Notes under the pieces: model-generated | Seen by the model: only the letters and a program-made list of their open reading frames with translations | Told to the model about the DNA's origin: nothing | Database searches by the model: none | Made by a program: the position numbers and the translations under genes | Assembly (NCBI GenBank): GCA_041663165.1 | Contig: JBAZRF010000005.1 | Span: forward strand, 502 to 64,501 | DNA length: 64,000 bases | Direction of reading: 5' to 3' | Source: Minisyncoccota bacterium | GTDB lineage: Bacteria > Patescibacteriota > Minisyncoccia > Phycocordibacterales > XYD1-FULL-46-19 | In this document: one piece after another, positions 16,374 through 63,196 of the stretch | Layout of the letters: each line of letters starts with the position of its first letter | Position numbering within the stretch: the first letter of the stretch is position 1

Positions 16374-18554
16374 TTACTCAACCGGCCACGATTCGATCAT
16401 TAGTAGAGAATTGGAACCAAGCTCCTGCCAAATTTCCTCAGTGATGAAGGGCATGAAGGGGTGCAGAGTGATGAGGATTTTCTTGAGAGTGTGAAGGAGG
16501 AATTGTTGACGCGAGGTTCTAGTTGGTCCGTCGGAGCCGGCAAAAATCTTTTTGCTATCTTCTAAAATATTAGCTGCCAATTCATCCCAAACATAATGAT
16601 AGAGTTTGTCAGAGGCGAGATGAAAGCGGAAGTTATCGAAATCGGTGGTGATATCAACAATCAAATTATGTCTAATCTCTCTTAATTTTTGATCAGTCTC
16701 TGTATACTTGTTGAAACTCGCGTCATATTGTTTGAAATCCGCATTACTTAAAATGAAGCGGGCCACATTCCACAATTTGTTAGCAAAAAGTTTATAGGCC
16801 TTAATCTTGTCCTCCGACAGGGCCATATCGGTGCCGGGTGTGTTGCCAACCACGAGGGCCATGCGCAGGGCATCGGTGCCATATTTTTCGCCAATCTCCA
16901 CCGGGCTAATGACGTTGCCCTTACTCTTGCTCATTTTTTGGCGCGAACCGTCACGGACCATGCCATGCAAATAGATGGTATGAAAGGGAATTTTACCGGT
17001 ACGATAAATACCAAGCATAATCATTTTGGCCACCCAAAAGAAGAGGATATCGGCGGCCGTTTCCATCACATCGGTTGGGTAAAAAGTTTTAAAATCAGGA
17101 TTATCCGGATAACCCAGGGTCGCAAAAGGCCATTGGCCCGACGAAAACCAAGTGTCAAAGGTATCGGGATCTTTAACTAATTCAGCTCCACATTTTTTAC
17201 ATTTAGTTTCTTTATTATCTAAATTCACCCTGTCGAGTTGTTCGCTATACTCTACAGGGTAAACAACGCCATAATCGCAGAGAGGATTGGTGCAAATTTT
17301 CGCTGGGATTGGGATGCCCCACACAATTTGGCGCGAGATATTCCAATCGCGGATATTCTCAAGCCAATGGAAATAAATTTTTTCTTGAAAGTCGGGGATA
17401 ATTTTTACTTCACCCGATTTAACCACTTCAATTGCTTTTTTCGCGAGCGGTTCCATTTTTACAAACCATTGAGGCATCACTCGCGGTTCGAGGGTGCGAT
17501 TGCACTTATAACAGGTATTGATGGTATGCTCGTAATCTTCTTCTTTTTCCATCAAACCTAAGGTCTTTAAATCTTCAACCACCTTTTTTCTGGCTTCCTC
17601 AATTTTTAAACCTTCGTATTTGCCGGCCGCGCTCGTAAGCCGGCCATTCTTGTCGATTACTTCGACGCCGGTTAAGTTGTGACGCTCGGCAATTTCGAAG
17701 TCAGCGGTATCGTGCCAAGGGGTAATGGTCATTACTCCGGTGCCAAATTCCATATCAATAACTGAATCCTTAACAACCGTAGCTGTAATTTTCCCTTCCA
17801 ACCAATCAACCGGGATTTGTTGCCCTTCCTTATACTCAGCATAACGAGGATCATCGGGGTGCATCACCACATACTTATCGCCAAACTTTGTTTCTGGACG
17901 AGAGGTAGCAATGGTGAAGGGTCCGTACTTCATATAGTATAGTTTATCGGTTTGAGTCACTGGCGTGGTTTCAAGATCAGAAAGGGAAGTTTGATGTTTG
18001 GTGCACCAATTAACAATTCGTTTACCGCGATAAATCAAACCATCATCTGACATTTGTTTGAAAGTGGCGTAAACGGTTTGGATGATGTCTGGGTCAAGCG
18101 TAAATTTTTCGCGCGACCAATCGCAAGATGAACCCAGGGCGCGCAGGTCAGTTTCGGTTGCACTTTTATTATCCTGAGTGAACTTCATAATCTCGCCATA
18201 TAATTCTTCTGGCGAAAAATCGAAGCGAGACTTGCCTTCTTTTTCCAATTTTTTTTCAAACACCACTTGAGTTTCAAAACCGGCATGATCAGTGCCTGGG
18301 AGCCAAAGAGTTTTATAGCCGCGCAGACGCTTATAACGCGTCATCACGTCTTCTAGGGTGACAAACAGGGCGTGACCAGCATGGAGACGGCCGTTGGCGT
18401 TGGGCGGGGGCATGATAATAGTAAAGGCCCCCTTGTCGGTTTGGGGTAAATTATCGGGATTAAAATATCCGCTTTTCTCCCACCGCTCATAAATTCGCTT
18501 CTCGGTCTCGCTCGGGTTATAGGGTTTTAGGAATTTTGAATCGTTATTTAACAT
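16374..18554 (-). CDS. valS: Valine--tRNA ligase (short form lacking the C-terminal coiled coil).
   Basis: This is a class I aaRS: 'PPPNANGRLHAGHAL' (HIGH-type motif), 'KMSKSKGN' (KMSKS), and the ValRS-like 'GTDHAGFETQVVFEKKLEKEGKSRFDFSPEEL'. Confidence 0.7.
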   Translation of the reverse strand: MLNNDSKFLKPYNPSETEKRIYERWEKSGYFNPDNLPQTDKGAFTIIMPPPNANGRLHAGHALFVTLEDVMTRYKRLRGYKTLWLPGTDHAGFETQVVFEKKLEKEGKSRFDFSPEELYGEIMKFTQDNKSATETDLRALGSSCDWSREKFTLDPDIIQTVYATFKQMSDDGLIYRGKRIVNWCTKHQTSLSDLETTPVTQTDKLYYMKYGPFTIATSRPETKFGDKYVVMHPDDPRYAEYKEGQQIPVDWLEGKITATVVKDSVIDMEFGTGVMTITPWHDTADFEIAERHNLTGVEVIDKNGRLTSAAGKYEGLKIEEARKKVVEDLKTLGLMEKEEDYEHTINTCYKCNRTLEPRVMPQWFVKMEPLAKKAIEVVKSGEVKIIPDFQEKIYFHWLENIRDWNISRQIVWGIPIPAKICTNPLCDYGVVYPVEYSEQLDRVNLDNKETKCKKCGAELVKDPDTFDTWFSSGQWPFATLGYPDNPDFKTFYPTDVMETAADILFFWVAKMIMLGIYRTGKIPFHTIYLHGMVRDGSRQKMSKSKGNVISPVEIGEKYGTDALRMALVVGNTPGTDMALSEDKIKAYKLFANKLWNVARFILSNADFKQYDASFNKYTETDQKLREIRHNLIVDITTDFDNFRFHLASDKLYHYVWDELAANILEDSKKIFAGSDGPTRTSRQQFLLHTLKKILITLHPFMPFITEEIWQELGSNSLLMIESWPVE

Positions 18555-18669
18555 TTTTTACCCTATTGAGTAAAAATCTTTTAAGATTTTATGGTGTTAA
18601 AACACCATTACTCAACAGGGTTAATCATACCAAAAAACCCATAATTGGCAAAGGGGAATTGGAGGAGGA

Positions 18670-19869
18670 TTATTTGAGATTTAAATTACCATCGGCTTTG
18701 AAAGTGTTAGATTTTTGGGACTTGCCAGCCAACAAGCGCAAGCCGGCGGAGAGGGCAATCATGGTGGCGTTATCGGTTGAGTAAGATAGCTCAGGGATAA
18801 GTAATTTTAAATTATTGACGCTGGCCATTTTGCTTAAAGCCTCACGCAAGGCGGTATTAGCAATAACCCCGCCACCAGCAATAATGGTTTTGGCCTTGAA
18901 TTTTTGGCCGGCCGATAAAGTTTTAGTCACCAGCACTTCGATGGCGGCCTGTTGAAACTCGTAGGCAATCTCGGCCTTTATTTTTTCGTCAAATTTATTG
19001 GCTTGTTTTAATTTTTGCACCAAATAAAGTACTGCGGTTTTAAGACCCGAAAAAGAAAAATCAAAATCGCCAGAATGGAGCATTGGCCTGGGTAATCTGA
19101 ACTGAGAGGCCTCGCCTCTCAGTTGGGAGTTAGGGTTAACTAAGAGGCGAGGCCTCTCAGTGCTTATTGTTGCCGCTAGTTTAGAAATCTCTGGTCCGCC
19201 CGGATAGGGGAGGTCCAGGATTCGTGCCACTTTATCAAACGCTTCGCCGACTGCGTCATCGCGAGTTCGGCCGATAATTTTATATTTCAGCCAATCTTTC
19301 GATAAAACCAACTCGGTATGCCCGCCGCTAACGATTAAAGAAATGATGGGGAAGGCCACTTTTTGCGGTGTTGCGAGCGAAGCCAGGATATGTCCCTCCA
19401 GATGATTAACCGGGTAAAGTGGTTTATCCCACACCAGCGCCAACGCTTTGGCAAAATTAATACCCACCCACAGCGCCGGCTCCAAGCCTGGCCCCTTGGT
19501 GACGGCAATAGCGTCGATTTTTGGGATTTTTAATTTTGGAATTACGGCAAAAAATTGTTCCTTTAATTCGGGTTCTCGTTCTAAAATTTTATTTATCTTT
19601 TTTTCTATTTTTTCTTCAAACTTTTTCTCTTTGCCTTCTCCCTTACCGAAAGCTTCTCCTAGTGATTTAACCAAAATTGGCACCAAATTCTTGCCGTGTT
19701 CTCGTTTGGCGAGAGAAGGAACAACTCCGCCCCATTCCTGATGGATCTTAATTTGCGAGGAAATATTATGGGCAAGCACCTTAAAAACGGGCTTGGTGAG
19801 AGAGCCTTTAACGTCAACGATACTAATAGCGGTATCGTCGCAACTGGTTTCGATAGCCAAAATTTTCAT
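18670..19869 (-). CDS. tsaD: tRNA N6-adenosine threonylcarbamoyltransferase TsaD (Kae1/YgjD). It carries an in-frame insertion of about 20 aa encoded by a REP-like palindrome doublet.
   Basis: 'MKILAIETSCDDTAISIV', the 'HLEGH' metal motif, 'VSGGHTEL' and 'DFSFSGLKTAV' are present. The protein is 399 aa, against about 340 typical. The extra segment 'TERPRLLVNPNSQLRGEASQF' maps to 19101-19162. Confidence 0.85.
   Translation of the reverse strand: MKILAIETSCDDTAISIVDVKGSLTKPVFKVLAHNISSQIKIHQEWGGVVPSLAKREHGKNLVPILVKSLGEAFGKGEGKEKKFEEKIEKKINKILEREPELKEQFFAVIPKLKIPKIDAIAVTKGPGLEPALWVGINFAKALALVWDKPLYPVNHLEGHILASLATPQKVAFPIISLIVSGGHTELVLSKDWLKYKIIGRTRDDAVGEAFDKVARILDLPYPGGPEISKLAATISTERPRLLVNPNSQLRGEASQFRLPRPMLHSGDFDFSFSGLKTAVLYLVQKLKQANKFDEKIKAEIAYEFQQAAIEVLVTKTLSAGQKFKAKTIIAGGGVIANTALREALSKMASVNNLKLLIPELSYSTDNATMIALSAGLRLLAGKSQKSNTFKADGNLNLK
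19101..19162. repeat. REP-like palindromic element doublet (two inverted copies of core GAGAGGC-CTC/GAG-GCCTCTC separated by 16 nt), located inside the tsaD coding sequence.
   Basis: 'ctgagaggcctcgcctctcag' (19102-19122) and 'ctaagaggcgaggcctctcag' (19140-19160) are visible. The same core, 'ttagaggc(ctc/gag)gcctctaa', recurs at 39256-39280, 39745-39773 and 39961-39989. Confidence 0.75.
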
Positions 19870-38977: not shown

Positions 38978-39255
38978 AATGTCTCCTACTATACAAAATA
39001 AAGCCCAAATTGGCAAATTTAACAAAAAACAAAGGCGGGGTCCGGAGACTTGCCGCCTTGCGTTGCTGGTTCGTGGCCTCCCTCAAGGAGAGGACCGACT
39101 AAATTGTCCGGGATGACCCTCGGGATAAACTCGCTTTCCCTAACGGTTTTGACGAGTTACCTCGTCCCTGAACCCGAACGCTTCCTTCCCGCAGTAACCA
39201 GCCCCAACCTCAGGGAATTAGCCGTATTGTATCTTTAACTAAAAATTTTGCAATC

Positions 39256-39280
39256 CACTTAGAGGCCTCGCCTCTAAGTG
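39256..39280. repeat. REP-like palindrome (cacttagaggc-ctc-gcctctaagtg) upstream of the RAYT gene.
   Basis: An 11-bp perfect stem with a 3-nt loop. Confidence 0.7.
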
Positions 39281-39304: not shown

Positions 39305-39961
39305 ATGTCTCAAAGAAAAGTCGCTTTTGCTATCGGAGAATATTACCACGTTTTCAATCGCGGGATTGAAGGTCGGAGTATTTTTGCCAATGATGAAGAC
39401 CTCAATCATTTTATTCAAAGTGTCGAAAAATTTAACGACAACAATGTTGTAGGAGGTTTATACATGAGCTCGTTCGATAAATACAAGAAAAAAGGGAAGA
39501 GATTAGTAAATATCATTTGTTATGCTTTCAACCCAAACCATTATCATTTTTTAATGACTCCCTTGGTCGAGAAAGGTATAGAAAATTTTATGCAACGGCT
39601 CGGTACCGGTCATACAATGTTTTTTAATCACCAGCACAAGAGGAAGGGGAGATTGTTTCAAGGTGTTTTTAAATCAGCCCATATTGATTCGAATGAGTAT
39701 TTAATGCATTTGAGTGTTTACATTAATTTAAACGACAAAGTTCACCAACTTAGAGGCGAGGCCTCTAAGTTGGCAAAAACTAGCTGGAATAGCTATGCCT
39801 CGAAAAAGAGAGACATTTTGCTTAGGGATATAAGCATAATTACCAATCAATTCAAAAATCCCAAAGAGTATAAAAAATTCGCCGAAGAAATTTTGCCAGA
39901 TATTATTGAAAGAAAACAATTACTGAAAGAGCTTGAAGCTATCATTATCGAGGAAGAATAG
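39305..39961 (+). CDS. REP-associated tyrosine transposase (RAYT; IS200-like Y1/HuH transposase family), carrying an internal in-frame REP copy.
   Basis: The N-terminal 'YYHVFNRGIEGRSIFANDEDLNHFIQ' matches RAYT 'YHVxxRGNxRQxIFxDDxDRxxFL'. The HuH motif is in 'ICYAFNPNHYHFLM'. 'GRLFQGVFKSAHIDSNEYLMHLSVYINLN' parallels 'GHLWQGRYKSxLVxxExYLLxLSRYIxLNP' and contains the catalytic Tyr. 'SWNSYAS' parallels RAYT 'WSSY'. Confidence 0.65.
   Translation: MSQRKVAFAIGEYYHVFNRGIEGRSIFANDEDLNHFIQSVEKFNDNNVVGGLYMSSFDKYKKKGKRLVNIICYAFNPNHYHFLMTPLVEKGIENFMQRLGTGHTMFFNHQHKRKGRLFQGVFKSAHIDSNEYLMHLSVYINLNDKVHQLRGEASKLAKTSWNSYASKKRDILLRDISIITNQFKNPKEYKKFAEEILPDIIERKQLLKELEAIIIEEE
39745..39773. repeat. REP-like palindrome (ccaacttagaggc-gag-gcctctaagttgg) inside the RAYT ORF; it encodes 'HQLRGEASKLA'.
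   Basis: A 13-bp perfect stem whose core is identical to the other copies. Confidence 0.7.
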
Positions 39962-39989
39962 CCACTTAGAGGCGAGGCCTCTAAGTGGC
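39961..39989. repeat. REP-like palindrome (gccacttagaggc-gag-gcctctaagtggc) immediately after the RAYT stop codon.
   Basis: A 13-bp perfect stem. Confidence 0.7.
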
Positions 39990-40030
39990 TTGCTGATGAC
40001 TTACTGATTTTAACTTGCTATAATTTTTTT

Positions 40031-40684
40031 GTGGATAAAATAATCGGTTCATTCGTCGAAGAACTTAAAAAAAGACCAGACGTTATTGGTATTATTCTTT
40101 TTGGCTCTTGGGCCAGGGGAAACAATCGGCCGGATAGTGACATCGATCTAATGGTTATTACCATTGAGGAGTTTAGGAGGACCGTTGAATATAAAGATAA
40201 TCGAGCTTTTGAAATTACTTATACGACAGAAAAATCAGCGATGGACTATTGGGAGAGTCACAAAAATGATTGTGCTGGATTGTGGGAAGTGGCAAAAATT
40301 CTCTACGATAAGGACGGAACGATAAAAAAGCTCGAAGAGTTTGCTCAAGGGATTATAAAAAAAGGGAAAAACCCGTTGGATGAAATAAAGATAGGTCATC
40401 TTAAATTTGACGCCAAGGACAGTTTAGAGGCGGTTAAGGCTCTTGCTAAAACCGAACCAGTCCTAGCTAATTTTTTATTAACGAACAAAATCTTTTGGCT
40501 GACTGAATTATTTTTTGATATCCGCCAATTGTGGGTACCGGCTCCTAAACAGAGGTTCGACAAAATAAAAGAAATTGACAAAGAGTTTTTCGATCTTCTA
40601 ACTCAGTTTTATCAAGACGGCATTGCTCTTACTGAGAAAATAAAAATTGCTGAAAAGACCATACCGATAGTTTTTAAAAGTTAG
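40031..40684 (+). CDS. Nucleotidyltransferase-domain protein (minimal Pol-beta-type NTase fused to a C-terminal helical domain; KNTase/Lnu-like architecture).
   Basis: 'GIILFGSWARGNNRPDSDIDLMVI' carries the GS...DxD NTase motif. The protein is 217 aa. Confidence 0.5.
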   Translation: MDKIIGSFVEELKKRPDVIGIILFGSWARGNNRPDSDIDLMVITIEEFRRTVEYKDNRAFEITYTTEKSAMDYWESHKNDCAGLWEVAKILYDKDGTIKKLEEFAQGIIKKGKNPLDEIKIGHLKFDAKDSLEAVKALAKTEPVLANFLLTNKIFWLTELFFDIRQLWVPAPKQRFDKIKEIDKEFFDLLTQFYQDGIALTEKIKIAEKTIPIVFKS

Positions 40685-48014: not shown

Positions 48015-48359
48015 ATGTCATTACGTTCTAAAATTGTGGTCGGTTTTGCTTCGCTCTCGCCGGTGATCGCTTCGGCCGGTTATCTCGATGATGTTGCCAC
48101 CACCTTTAAGAAGGTGATTGCCACCGTCTTGCCCGCCTTCATCGGCCTGGCCATCATCGGCTTCGCTTACGGCTTGTTCGTTTATCTTAAGGGTGGGGCT
48201 GAAGACAAGGAGAAGGGTAAGACTTTGATCTTTTGGGGCGGCTTATCAATTGTTGTTTTAATCTCTCTCTACGGTATTGCCGGGTTATTGCAAACTCTCA
48301 CCGGGGCCACGGGGACAATTATTAATGTTCCCTCGGTGGTTACCGGTTTGCATCAATGA
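48015..48359 (+). CDS. Pilin-like small membrane protein, paralog 4.
   Basis: 'LPAFIGLAIIGFAYGLFVYLKGGAEDKEKGKTL' is identical to the corresponding segment of paralog 5. Confidence 0.45.
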   Translation: MSLRSKIVVGFASLSPVIASAGYLDDVATTFKKVIATVLPAFIGLAIIGFAYGLFVYLKGGAEDKEKGKTLIFWGGLSIVVLISLYGIAGLLQTLTGATGTIINVPSVVTGLHQ

Positions 48360-48474: not shown

Positions 48475-48834
48475 ATGTCGCTTCGTGTAAAAATTGGGGC
48501 TGGGTTAATGGCTCTTTTGCCAATGACTTCTTTCGCTCTCGGGTTTAATAATGCTTACTTTACGAACATGTCGGTAGCGTTTAAAACCATAATCGGGAAC
48601 CTTTTGCCCGCCTTCATCGGCCTGGCCATCATCGGCTTCGCTTACGGCTTGTTCGTTTATCTTAAGGGTGGGGCTGAAGACAAGGAGAAGGGTAAGACTT
48701 TGATGATTTGGGGCGGTCTAGCCGTTGTCATCTTGATTTCTATTTACGGCATTGCCGGGTTATTGCAAGATCTGACGGGGGCAACCGATACTAATATTAC
48801 TCCGCCGACGACTATCAAGGGCCTAAATATATAG
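48475..48834 (+). CDS. Pilin-like small membrane protein, paralog 5.
   Basis: A nucleotide block of about 100 bp (48604-48704) is identical to 48129-48229. Confidence 0.45.
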   Translation: MSLRVKIGAGLMALLPMTSFALGFNNAYFTNMSVAFKTIIGNLLPAFIGLAIIGFAYGLFVYLKGGAEDKEKGKTLMIWGGLAVVILISIYGIAGLLQDLTGATDTNITPPTTIKGLNI

Positions 48835-55776: not shown

Positions 55777-56406
55777 ATGTATACACTACCAAAATTGCCC
55801 TACGATTATAATGCGCTCGAACCGTTTGTCGACGAGGCGACGATGCGCTTGCATCATGGCAAACATCATCAAGCTTATTGTGATAAATTAAACGCGACTC
55901 TCGAAAAATATCCTGATTTGATGACTAATCCGGCGGAGGAATTGCTGGTTAAACTAAATGACTTGCCCGAGGAAATTAGGGTGGGAGTCAGAAATTTTGG
56001 TGGCGGTTATGTTAATCATAATTTCTTTTGGCAGATTTTAAACATACCCAAAGAAAATAATTTACTTGACCAGCCGGGGCCCGTCGGCGGATTGGCAAAA
56101 AAAATTGATGAACAGTTCGGCAGTTTTGCCGACTTCAAAAAACAATTGAGTGACAGGGCGATCGGTCTATTCGGTTCAGGTTGGGCGTGGCTGGTTTTTG
56201 ATAAAGGTAAATTGGCAATCACCACGACTATTAATCAAGATTCTCCGCTTTCTCTTGGTCAAATTTCATTATTAACGATTGATGTTTGGGAACACGCTTA
56301 TTATTTGAAGTACCAAAATCGCCGAGCGGAATATGTTGAGGCGATCTGGTCAGTTTTTAATTGGTTCAAAATCGCAGAGAATTATGATCTGGCTTTAAAA
56401 TCCTAA
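55777..56406 (+). CDS. sodA: Fe/Mn superoxide dismutase.
   Basis: 'LPKLPYDYNALEPFVDEATMRLHHGKHHQAY' and 'DVWEHAYYLKYQNRRAEY' are present. Confidence 0.85.
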   Translation: MYTLPKLPYDYNALEPFVDEATMRLHHGKHHQAYCDKLNATLEKYPDLMTNPAEELLVKLNDLPEEIRVGVRNFGGGYVNHNFFWQILNIPKENNLLDQPGPVGGLAKKIDEQFGSFADFKKQLSDRAIGLFGSGWAWLVFDKGKLAITTTINQDSPLSLGQISLLTIDVWEHAYYLKYQNRRAEYVEAIWSVFNWFKIAENYDLALKS

Positions 56407-56487
56407 AAGTGCTATAATTCACCCTATAGAGTAATGATGCTTTAGCATCATAAAATTATGAATAATTTTTACTCAATAGGGTAAAAT

Positions 56488-57276
56488 ATGGACATTAAGG
56501 ATTTAAATCGAAGCCAATTTTTGTTGTTGCTCTTGTTGATTATGCTGGTTACCTCGATTACTACCGCCGTTGTAACAGTTACCTTATTTGATCAAACGCC
56601 CAAGGCGGGGATTGTCAATACTGTTAATCGGGTTATCGAACGAGTAATCCCTGGTGCCACAACCACGGTAATAAAGATCGTCAAAGAAGCGCCGACTGTC
56701 AGTGAGGGAGAACAAATTGTTAAAGCCACCGAATCGGTTTCTCCTGCCGTGATAAAATTGGTTAACAAAACCGACAAGGGAAGCGAAAATCTTGGTACCG
56801 GCTTCATTATTCGCGACGGCCTGGTGGTCACCGCCCTTAAAAATATTCCGAGCGATTTGACTGGCGTTAATCTCGAGGTGGTAAGAAATACGACCGTCTC
56901 CTTGGCCGAGGTTTTGTCACGAGATGTTGATAATAATATTGTTTTCATTAGGTTTACGGCCACCAGCACTCTTTCGGTTGGTAACCTAACTCTAAGTGAT
57001 AAGTCTCCGACCAATGGCCAAACCAGCGTTGCCCTGTCTTATTCAGACAGTGGCAATCCGGATATCATGATCGGTTTAATTATGGGTCTAATAAATGCCA
57101 CCTCTTCAACCACACCGAACCAAAGTGTTGATCTCATTCGTACTGGCTCAGTGATTGGTGATAATATTGGCGGACCGGTGGTCGGCTTGGATGGCAAGGT
57201 GATCGGGATCGGGATTTCTCGTGGCTATGCCTTGGCTGCTCCGGCACTGAAGGCTCTGGTTGACCAAATAAAATAG
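56488..57276 (+). CDS. Trypsin/HtrA-like fold protein with substituted catalytic residues (probable pseudoprotease), membrane anchored.
   Basis: 'GTGFIIRDGLVVTALKN' has Lys where the catalytic His is expected in 'TNAHV'. 'GDNIGGPVVGLDGKVIGI' has Asn/Ile where 'GDSGGP' is expected. Confidence 0.4.
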   Translation: MDIKDLNRSQFLLLLLLIMLVTSITTAVVTVTLFDQTPKAGIVNTVNRVIERVIPGATTTVIKIVKEAPTVSEGEQIVKATESVSPAVIKLVNKTDKGSENLGTGFIIRDGLVVTALKNIPSDLTGVNLEVVRNTTVSLAEVLSRDVDNNIVFIRFTATSTLSVGNLTLSDKSPTNGQTSVALSYSDSGNPDIMIGLIMGLINATSSTTPNQSVDLIRTGSVIGDNIGGPVVGLDGKVIGIGISRGYALAAPALKALVDQIK

Positions 57277-62302: not shown

Positions 62303-63196
62303 TTAGGCTTCGACGGGTAAATCTGTCCAGAGTTTGATCCACTTAATTCGTTTGTCTCTTTTAAACCAGGTCATTTGGCGTTTGGAGTATTTAATGATCT
62401 CTTTTTCGAGTTGCTCAATCATCTTCGGCTTGGTGATTTTGCCCTGCAAAAAACGGGCGAGACAGCGGTATTCTAAACCTAATTCTTCCATTCGCTTCCA
62501 ACCCAAGCCTTGTCGGTGTAGTTTCTTAACTTCAGCTATCATCCCGTGTTCTAGCCTCTCGATTAATCTTTTATGAATTTTTTTATTTAATTCTTCTTGA
62601 TCGATCCTTATGCCGATAATTTCAAAATTATAAGGGGCTTGCCCTTCGTAGCCTTGGCGAAGAAGGGGCACCCTTCCCAATTCTTTTGCGATCTCAATTG
62701 CCCTAATCAAACGCACCGGGTTCTTGCTGTCAATTTCTCTGGCTCGTCTCGGATCTAACTTTTTTAACATCGCGAAAAGTTCGCTTGGAGGTGTCGCCTC
62801 CAAGTTGGCCCGCAGTTTTTTATCTGGCGCAACTTCCGGTAAAACCAAGTCATCGACTACCGCTTGAACATAAAAACCGGTTCCGCCGACAATAATTGGC
62901 GTATGACCGCGAGCGATAATTTCTTTAATTTTTTGCTCGGTGATTCTTTTAAAATCGGCCACCGTAAAAACCTTTTTCGGGTCAGCCACATCAAGCAGAT
63001 GATGAGGAATACCGGCCATCTCTTTTTTGGTTACCTTGCCAGTGCCAATATTTAGGCCTCTATAGACCTGCCTTGAATCAGCGCTGATAATCTCACCATT
63101 TAACTTCCTGGCGAGCTTAATTGACAAAGCCGTCTTGCCTGACGCGGTTGGGCCAACGACGACGATAATCTTTAATTTTTCCCATTTTGGAGCCAT
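62303..63196 (-). CDS. miaA: tRNA dimethylallyltransferase.
   Basis: 'IIVVVGPTASGKTALSIKLARKLNGEIISADSRQVYRGLNIGTGK' is the P-loop and the MiaA N-terminal signature. Confidence 0.85.
   Translation of the reverse strand: MAPKWEKLKIIVVVGPTASGKTALSIKLARKLNGEIISADSRQVYRGLNIGTGKVTKKEMAGIPHHLLDVADPKKVFTVADFKRITEQKIKEIIARGHTPIIVGGTGFYVQAVVDDLVLPEVAPDKKLRANLEATPPSELFAMLKKLDPRRAREIDSKNPVRLIRAIEIAKELGRVPLLRQGYEGQAPYNFEIIGIRIDQEELNKKIHKRLIERLEHGMIAEVKKLHRQGLGWKRMEELGLEYRCLARFLQGKITKPKMIEQLEKEIIKYSKRQMTWFKRDKRIKWIKLWTDLPVEA

Follow-up and report, generated by a model that had tools for sequence, protein, structure and literature searches.

A REPIN-like doublet in frame within tsaD and REPs inside a RAYT gene of a Patescibacterial genome

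The window analysed here is a stretch of 64,000 nucleotides (nt) from a Minisyncoccota bacterium (assembly GCA_041663165.1, contig JBAZRF010000005.1, positions 502 to 64,501), and it holds two genes that share a short palindrome. The first, tsaD, carries two inverted copies of the palindrome within its coding sequence. The second encodes a REP-associated tyrosine transposase (RAYT; REP, repetitive extragenic palindrome) and has a copy at either end and one inside its open reading frame (ORF) (Table 1). The two tsaD copies are in frame and lie where a preliminary description of this DNA had placed them; the observation of the doublet is confirmed.

Table 1 Features of the window, and TsaD loops of related loci
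Feature	Position	Strand	Basis, reading or folding energy
tsaD, host of the doublet	18670–19869	minus	single intact ORF, 399 aa
REPIN-like unit: two inverted REPs and extended arms	19094–19168		inverted-repeat search, folding
Hairpin 1, CTGAGAGGC-CTC-GCCTCTCAG	19102–19122	minus	read L-R-G-E-A-S-Q, TsaD residues about 250–256
Hairpin 2, CTAAGAGGC-GAG-GCCTCTCAG	19140–19160	minus	read T-E-R-P-R-L-L, TsaD residues about 237–243
Upstream REP, loop CTC	39256–39280		11-bp stem; 25 nt ahead of the RAYT start codon
RAYT gene, 218 aa, distant HUH/Y1 transposase	39305–39961	plus	fold match, HUH and Tyr residues
Internal REP in the RAYT ORF	39745–39773	plus	13-bp stem; read HQLRGEASKL; about 25 nt past the catalytic-Tyr motif YINLN
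Downstream REP, loop GAG, overlapping the RAYT stop codon	39960–39990		14-bp stem
miaA, host of the degenerate hairpin	62303–63196	minus	PF01715 (IPPT) 5.8e-68; hairpin read as ANLEATPPSELF
Degenerate REP-like hairpin CTTGGAGGT-GTC-GCCTCCAAG	62784–62804	minus	family D2, 8-bp stem, one G.T pair; in frame in miaA
TsaD loop, L098 (P0003)			doublet of CTTGGAAGC-type REPs; −45.5 kcal/mol
TsaD loop, L099 (P0021)			doublet of CTTGGAGGT-TAA-ACCTCCAAG; −43.7 kcal/mol
TsaD loop, L094 (P0010)			single TTTGGGAGC-TCG-GCTTCCAAA; −12.4 kcal/mol
TsaD loop, L095			different long hairpin; −29.4 kcal/mol
TsaD loop, L097			different long hairpin; −33.8 kcal/mol
TsaD loop, L096			no element; −7.5 kcal/mol

A hairpin doublet in frame within tsaD

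Within the doublet, hairpin 2 is an inverted copy of the 21 nt of hairpin 1 with one mismatch, and 17 nt separate the two. The stem of hairpin 1 is a perfect 9 bp, or 11 bp when the flanks are counted, and the complementarity extends outwards into arms of 31 nt (19094–19124 and 19138–19168) that are 87% complementary and 13 nt apart. The sense RNA of the doublet folds into one 24-bp stem closed by a 13-nt loop, at −46.9 kcal/mol (z = −11.0), and the plus-strand DNA reaches −25.7 kcal/mol (z = −8.9). The single stem difference of hairpin 2 is a G.U pair on the sense strand and an A.C mismatch on the other strand. Inverted REPs, a short spacer and one long combined hairpin are the hallmarks of a REPIN, the doublet form of a REP, and all three are found here. 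Five copies of the palindrome core, GAGGCSWSGCCTC, are present in the window, where shuffled sequences give an expectation of 0.01; two lie in tsaD and three at the RAYT gene.

The doublet is read in frame and free of stops as ...STERPRLLVNPNSQLRGEASQFRLPRPM..., with the whole unit read as STERPRLLVNPNSQLRGEASQF, and the predicted insert peptide, TERPRLLVNPNSQLRGEASQF, would sit between ...ATIS and ...FRLPRPM of the TsaD protein. Two of the three frames of the palindrome are open, whichever its orientation. A frameshifted tsaD pseudogene, raised in advance as a possible objection, is not what we found: the gene is one open frame whose product matches the TIGR03723 equivalog over its full length (3.1e-107; 358 bits against a cut-off of 296) and PF00814 (3.4e-81). 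The metal and ATP motifs (H156, H160, D204–D205 and T365–D366–N367) are invariant across the TsaD alignment, which places the protein among the TsaDs. A class I tRNA synthetase gene adjoins tsaD in the window, and likewise in orthologs.

An AlphaFold2 model of the window TsaD, made with 40 orthologs, has a mean predicted local distance difference test (pLDDT) score of 89 and a predicted template modelling (TM) score of 0.87. Residues 233–261 are modelled as coil, with pLDDT below 50 at 238–252, so that the insert occupies a surface loop, as had been anticipated; it runs from the end of a helix (...GPEISKLAA) to the conserved LPRPML segment. In the alignment, solved TsaD structures (8iey and E. 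coli 4wq5) are shorter by 14–17 residues exactly at the insert, and the closest ortholog without it (P0011, from L096; LALEVKDSGEIKLPRPM) is 16 residues shorter. The insert is therefore about 16 residues long, less than the roughly 20 first proposed. It accounts for only that part of the unusual length of the protein, which the preliminary description had ascribed to the doublet; the remainder is a separate insert of about 40 residues at positions 72–111 that is present in all 40 aligned relatives.

The RAYT gene and its hairpins

By sequence, the window RAYT stands far from the families that it belongs to. It scores 21.7 bits against PF01797, under the cut-off of 23, and 19.8 bits against the NCBIfam model REP_Tyr_transpos, for which the cut-off is 80; all of its 27 aligned homologs match PF01797. 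A profile search of the PDB by sequence gave no meaningful match, and fold comparison alone succeeded. The RAYT model (pLDDT 87) has as its best match 4er8_A (E 6.8e-6, TM 0.62), which is E. coli TnpA_REP bound to a REP hairpin, and the TnpA proteins of IS608 and ISDra2 rank next (2–19). H79-x-H81 and Y139 are invariant among the 27 homologs, giving the HUH motif and catalytic tyrosine which, together with the Y1 fold, characterize the transposases of REP–RAYT systems. The source annotation of this gene or its cluster mates reads ‘REP element-mobilizing transposase RayT’.

RAYTs are known as single-copy, vertically inherited genes (PMC5581495). At the scale of the window, this RAYT fits the published picture: it is present once within the 64 kb and at a conserved position, the order S1-domain gene, RAYT, Lactamase_B_3, gyrA being common to the window and to the loci L011 and L013 (relatives at 64–78% identity). 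A nucleotidyltransferase gene (PF01909, 3.7e-12; 40031–40684) lies between the downstream REP and Lactamase_B_3; it is not at that position in L011 and may be a small insertion beside the REP.

The two outer hairpins form a flanking inverted pair (39250–39280 and 39963–39993, repeat I2) of 31 nt with 97% complementarity, and the third lies in frame inside the RAYT ORF, as the preliminary description stated. To see this arrangement in a wider setting, we compared the DNA of 84 RAYT loci (36–100% identity), counting positions from the tyrosine motif. A common architecture emerges. The start codon is directly preceded by a hairpin (about −450 to −490 nt), internal hairpins lie at about −245 nt, where they are optional, and at about +25 nt, and a last hairpin sits at the stop codon (about +225 to +250 nt). 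Within a locus every position bears the same locus-specific stem, and 29 distinct stems occur among the loci. Of 80 loci, 58 have an upstream hairpin, 51 a downstream one and 52 both flanking and internal perfect hairpins. In 50 of the 51 loci that allow the comparison, an internal and a flanking stem share their inner 7 nt, as opposed to 4.4% of cross-locus pairs.

The position of the internal REP is shared by 38 scored RAYT loci with locus-specific stems, and its pairing was examined in a MAFFT alignment anchored at the tyrosine motif, with 500 shuffles and slid controls. In this alignment 83.5% of cells pair, versus 65.7% after shuffling, and double-sided changes occur at all ten pairs, in 125 cells versus 42.8. 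The covariation score is 0.441 versus 0.194 for the shuffles, none of the 500 of which reaches it, and the slid controls give 0.06–0.14. Variation in these hairpins is greatest at the four inner pairs, and the outer pairs, ACTT/AAGT, are conserved. Of 38 internal hairpins, 37 have a 3-nt loop that makes up exactly one codon, and the relative loop orientation between positions of the locus is about 50:50. Many REP copies have a G or GG directly after them, yielding AAGTGG, and no separate unpaired GTAG tag is evident.

At the protein level, Y(I/V)NLN is followed by HQL(R/G)G.(A/S)SKL at a constant position down to 48% identity, and some homologs bear a second such peptide near residue 65. We considered that the internal palindrome might be a by-product of a conserved peptide and rejected this, as the peptide varies (LGNRIAK, LGHSMSK, LRHGVSK, RGRRAST and others) with the pairing kept. 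Pairing that is kept while the peptide varies freely indicates that what is conserved is the hairpin in the nucleic acid and not the peptide that it encodes. The internal copy is a conserved, fixed-position feature of the Patescibacterial RAYT family. The view that it is an element insertion comparable to the one in tsaD holds as far as the reading frame is concerned, but not as regards a sporadic origin.

TsaD loops and other host genes in relatives

The window doublet recurs, at the same position and with the same 38-nt spacing, in L001, L002 and L005, which are independent JGI, ENA and NCBI assemblies (protein P0004). P0006 (L003) has a doublet with boundaries identical to those of the window and with the stems GAGGT-TTC-ACCTC and GAGGT-GAA-ACCTC; six mirrored transitions separate it from the window, and both stems are preserved. 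Other relatives carry other elements in the same loop (Table 1), such that at least four different REP doublets occupy the TsaD site among related Paceibacterota and one ortholog is empty. The loops of L001, L003, L098 and L099 fold like that of the window, at −43.7 to −52.9 kcal/mol. The insert is lineage-specific, as had been proposed for examination: it is shared by the window, P0004 and P0006 and is not in P0011, P0012, P0014, P0022, P0025, or in distant or solved TsaDs. A TsaD tree from 362 gap-free columns groups the window with P0006, P0004 and P0003, and the doublet of P0003, inside this group, is a different one. Loop peptides are unrelated between P0020 and P0021, which are close sisters. 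Differing elements of one RAYT-associated REP superfamily in a single loop across genomes imply that the loop has been colonized repeatedly or that a resident element has been rewritten.

Further variable sites are found in the same protein. L094 and L095 have a palindromic doublet of another sequence, CGAAGTCCAACTTCG ... CGAAGTTGGACTTCG, that is read as part of a second variable loop at about residues 67–90, with stems of 13–20 bp and about −33 kcal/mol. P0004 and P0006 have extra peptides at further TsaD sites, for example SAQGRPTLSGK.

A scan of the genome collection with CTNAGAGGCCTCGCCTCTNAG returned seven loci, with the exact hairpin in just two other metagenome-assembled genomes (MAGs) of Paceibacterota, LW4_55 and LW4_71. 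LW4_55 has six exact copies, two of them in tsaD and one each in the gene for the YchF GTPase, in the dihydroorotate dehydrogenase gene (pyrD), in a RAYT remnant and in an intergenic position; the copy of LW4_71 is in pheT. Single in-frame REPs are found in ychF, pyrD, pheT and fmt of relatives. At one ychF site common to L008 and L014, the two have different REPs, that of L014 being the REP of its own RAYT locus. Across about 596 kb around RAYT genes, the REP of the locus itself has 166 copies within 300 nt of the RAYT and nine exact copies elsewhere, six of which lie in long ORFs (ychF, fmt, a pilin-like gene and a gene for an 1855-aa protein, among others). A preference of the REPs for genes was considered and rejected, as six of nine is not above the coding density of such genomes, roughly 90% by estimate. 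The preliminary description saw in the palindrome a dispersed repeat family; this is borne out by the copies that flank the RAYT and sit in other genes of relatives, and qualified by the very low copy number.

Away from the RAYT, the window itself contains the tsaD doublet and one degenerate copy in miaA and no others; the miaA hairpin probably belongs to the same REP superfamily, as an old copy in decay. In LW4_55 (L010 2199–2576 and L009 910–1314), the cognate RAYT has been cut down to its C-terminal 52 residues (167–218), the remnant starting exactly at the internal REP, and a RAYT paralog of 41% identity is encoded elsewhere in the genome. The end point of this deletion hints that the hairpins are prone to recombination.

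Exact matches to the 21-nt hairpin also occur in a Bdellovibrionales MAG (L004, 1505–1525) and an Anaerobiospirillum MAG (L007, 3803–3823). In L004, a 26-nt stretch equals the downstream REP of the window (39962–39987), and the copy appears to be intergenic. Both loci have 51–53% GC and come from unrelated phyla, and we set them aside as unrelated or unexplained; they may reflect chance, mis-binning or a related REP family. Viral contigs gave no matches.

Two further repeats of the window have other sequences. One, of about 98 nt, is present in inverted orientation at 18535–18632 and 56410–56507, the copies being 79% complementary in the repeat search and 84% identical when aligned, and is itself palindromic (ACCCTATTGAGTAA ... 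TTACTCAACAGGGT, with an inner hairpin ATGGTGTTAAAACACCAT). It lies in the valS–tsaD spacer, overlapping the valS start, and between the ORFs 55777–56406 and 56488–57276, and may be a shared module with operator or promoter function, or else a small mobile element. The other is a direct repeat of 220 nt (48105–48324 and 48580–48799; 84% identity, 475 nt apart) that probably represents two tandem paralogous small genes; the matching region in relatives contains small genes resembling pilins of type IV secretion systems.

Origin of the doublet and relation to known systems

The doublet is very probably a REPIN-type pair from the REP family of the window RAYT, lying in frame in a flexible loop of an intact essential TsaD and, most likely, translated into about 16 residues and tolerated. 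Its assignment to the REP family of this RAYT follows from the over-representation of the core in the window, the inverted copies that flank the RAYT gene, the TnpA_REP fold of the enzyme and the 24-bp stem. The interpretation given in the preliminary description is supported in this form. By analogy with 4er8 and IS608, the RAYT would recognize and cut REP hairpins on single-stranded DNA, and it may occasionally place copies of a REP or REPIN elsewhere. In a gene-dense genome, where most sites are coding, the survivors would be copies that keep the frame, contain no stop and land in permissive loops; once in an essential gene, a copy might persist because its imprecise deletion would be lethal. 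The sameness of the stems at the RAYT locus may reflect selection on all copies as substrates of a co-evolving RAYT, possibly with self-regulation, or short-patch conversion or template switching between nearby palindromes. A more far-reaching proposal, which we put forward tentatively and with more doubt than confidence, is that the RAYT actively rewrites or maintains hairpins in coding DNA, or regulates itself through them, and that REPINs turn over in loops of essential genes such as tsaD and ychF. If true, this would offer a workable example in nature of co-evolution between a transposase and the substrate copies in its own gene.

Several observations weigh against a REPIN placed in tsaD by the RAYT. 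No target-site duplication or other target-site signature was found at the tsaD insert, where the loop is too diverged for exact boundaries to be drawn. The tsaD stems have CTGAG/CTCAG, as opposed to CTTAG/CTAAG in all three copies at the RAYT locus, which means that the distant tsaD doublet is not kept in step with the REPs of the window RAYT. Outside RAYT loci the copy number is very low, about one per 60 kb and far under that of classical REP families, a number that does not speak for ongoing mobility. The six of nine dispersed copies that lie in ORFs speak for tolerance and not preference, and the intragenic copies of LW4_55 outlast a degraded RAYT, making at least some copies fossils.

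A history in which a single ancient REPIN insertion in the TsaD loop was rewritten in place, by palindrome self-correction and by gene conversion from the current REPs of each genome, with some losses and no new transposition, is conceivable, though we lean against it. The window, L001 and L003 share identical boundaries (after AGC ACT), the 38-nt spacing and related spacers and group on the tree of gap-free TsaD columns, both L003 hairpins differ solely by mirrored transitions, and the RAYT-locus copies demonstrate that concerted change of fixed-position REPs does occur. Rewriting in place fits less well with the doublets of L098 and L099, the spacers of which are about 5 and 10 nt instead of 13–17 nt and the boundaries of which are shifted. 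It also has to accommodate P0003 (L098), which nests within the clade of window-type doublets, the sisters P0020 and P0021 with their unrelated loop peptides, and window tsaD copies that do not track their own RAYT REPs. Recruitment of the hairpins for regulation in cis, with the RAYT repressing itself through single-stranded DNA or mRNA sites and the tsaD RNA stem tuning translation or stability, seems unlikely to us. In its favour, the internal RAYT positions and their codon phase are fixed over 36–78% protein identity with the peptide free, which implies selection or homogenization at the level of nucleic-acid structure; the internal stems are those of the flanking REPs that the RAYT, by analogy with 4er8, would be expected to bind; and the stem difference in tsaD leaves a G.U pair on the sense strand where the other strand has an A.C mismatch. 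Yet 21 of 73 position-scorable RAYT loci have no perfect internal copy, the even loop orientation speaks against a protein contact at the loop that is strictly strand-specific, and TsaD orthologs free of the insert make a tsaD-specific role unnecessary.

Bypassed GC-rich palindromic inserts are known in yeast mitochondria, and a hairpin as stable as this one (−47 kcal/mol) within an essential ORF might suggest that the insert goes untranslated, through excision from the message or ribosome bypassing. Skipped inserts would impose no constraint on frame or stops, whereas all intragenic copies examined are in frame and stop-free (tsaD in seven genomes, ychF in two, and pyrD, pheT, fmt and miaA), a constraint that makes bypassing highly improbable. 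To an artefact, whether the palindrome arose by chance, the assembly is chimeric or tsaD is decaying into a pseudogene, we give practically no credence. Nothing but the low copy number within the window points that way, and it is met by five core matches where 0.01 is expected, by the same doublet in independent JGI, ENA and NCBI assemblies, and by the full-length equivalog match and confident model of TsaD.

With the doublet read as a REPIN of the RAYT, the locus bears on how such systems are seen. REP–RAYT systems are usually presented as intergenic residents of large proteobacterial genomes. The present RAYT family, a distant one, persists in the ultra-small, gene-dense genomes of the Candidate Phyla Radiation (CPR), with most of its hairpins in coding sequence, including that of its own gene. 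The covariation data set, with 29 stem variants at more than 50 loci in fixed position and phase, lends itself to deciding between RAYT–REP co-evolution and conversion. Length variation and ‘low-complexity’ loops in CPR TsaD, YchF, Fmt, PheT and PyrD would be in part translated mobile palindromes, which matter for the annotation, alignment, phylogenomics and structure prediction of CPR proteins.

REP and REPIN–RAYT systems have been described in Proteobacteria, as E. coli TnpA_REP (yafM) with its bacterial interspersed mosaic elements and as the REPINs of Pseudomonas (PMC2817692, PMC3116915, PMC5581495). The window system shares with them a single-copy, syntenic and apparently vertical HUH/Y1 gene between two inverted, short, GC-rich hairpins, inverted REP doublets that form a long hairpin, stems that change by compensatory substitutions, and 4er8 as the best fold match. 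It differs from the described RAYTs in the very distant sequence of its protein and in its copy number, as abundant, extragenic REPs, tens to hundreds per genome, are not found and about one copy per 60 kb takes their place. Its dispersed copies lie mostly in genes, and its host belongs to the Patescibacteria (Candidatus Paceibacterota by the source names), for which, or for CPR, we found no published link to a RAYT or REPIN in the open-access literature. The founding RAYT papers describe flanking REPs alone, whereas one or two REPs occupy fixed in-frame positions in the RAYT ORF here; in the same literature we found no published report of REPs inside RAYT ORFs.

Other known elements resemble parts of this arrangement. 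As opposed to IS200/IS605 elements, with which the window RAYT has in common the Y1 HUH fold of the IS608 and ISDra2 TnpA proteins and hairpin ends recognized on single-stranded DNA, the RAYT is single-copy, fixed and not itself dispersed, has no tnpB and has extra hairpins within its ORF. The palindromes of Nematomorpha mitochondrial genes are long perfect inverted repeats in coding sequence with both arms translated, according to the abstract of that study (PMC6649704); they are organellar and from unrelated organisms, and the abstract names no transposase. Rickettsia palindromic elements (RPEs) lie in frame in functional genes of a small, gene-dense genome, as mentioned in passages of Di Nocera et al. 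2013 (PMC3733652). The window elements are likewise in-frame palindromes tolerated in functional genes of a gene-dense genome, but the likeness is functional only. RPEs are longer, are not known to have a cognate transposase and are known only from Rickettsia. The elements described here measure 21 nt as hairpins and about 60 nt as doublets, and their RAYT can be identified.

The closest precedent for the tsaD insertion is the account of intragenic REPs in the same passages of Di Nocera et al. (PMC3733652). There, GTAG and CGTC REPs and their dimers lie within housekeeping ORFs of Opitutus, Rickettsia, Thauera and others, the dimers encoding 20–30 residues for which a role as linkers or loops is proposed, and orthologous Xanthomonas recB genes have different REPs at about the same site. 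The window REPs differ in having no evident GTAG or CGTC tag, and those passages describe neither a REP internal to the transposase gene nor copies at orthologous sites with genome-specific REPs. The preliminary description took in-frame palindromes to be undescribed for CPR and in association with a RAYT; the CPR host is new, but RAYT-associated GTAG REPs in housekeeping genes outside Rickettsia had already been published, as these passages (PMC3733652) record. The tsaD insertion itself falls within the known class of in-frame REPs, and what is new is the CPR host together with a RAYT gene whose internal REPs evolve in concert with those at its flanks.

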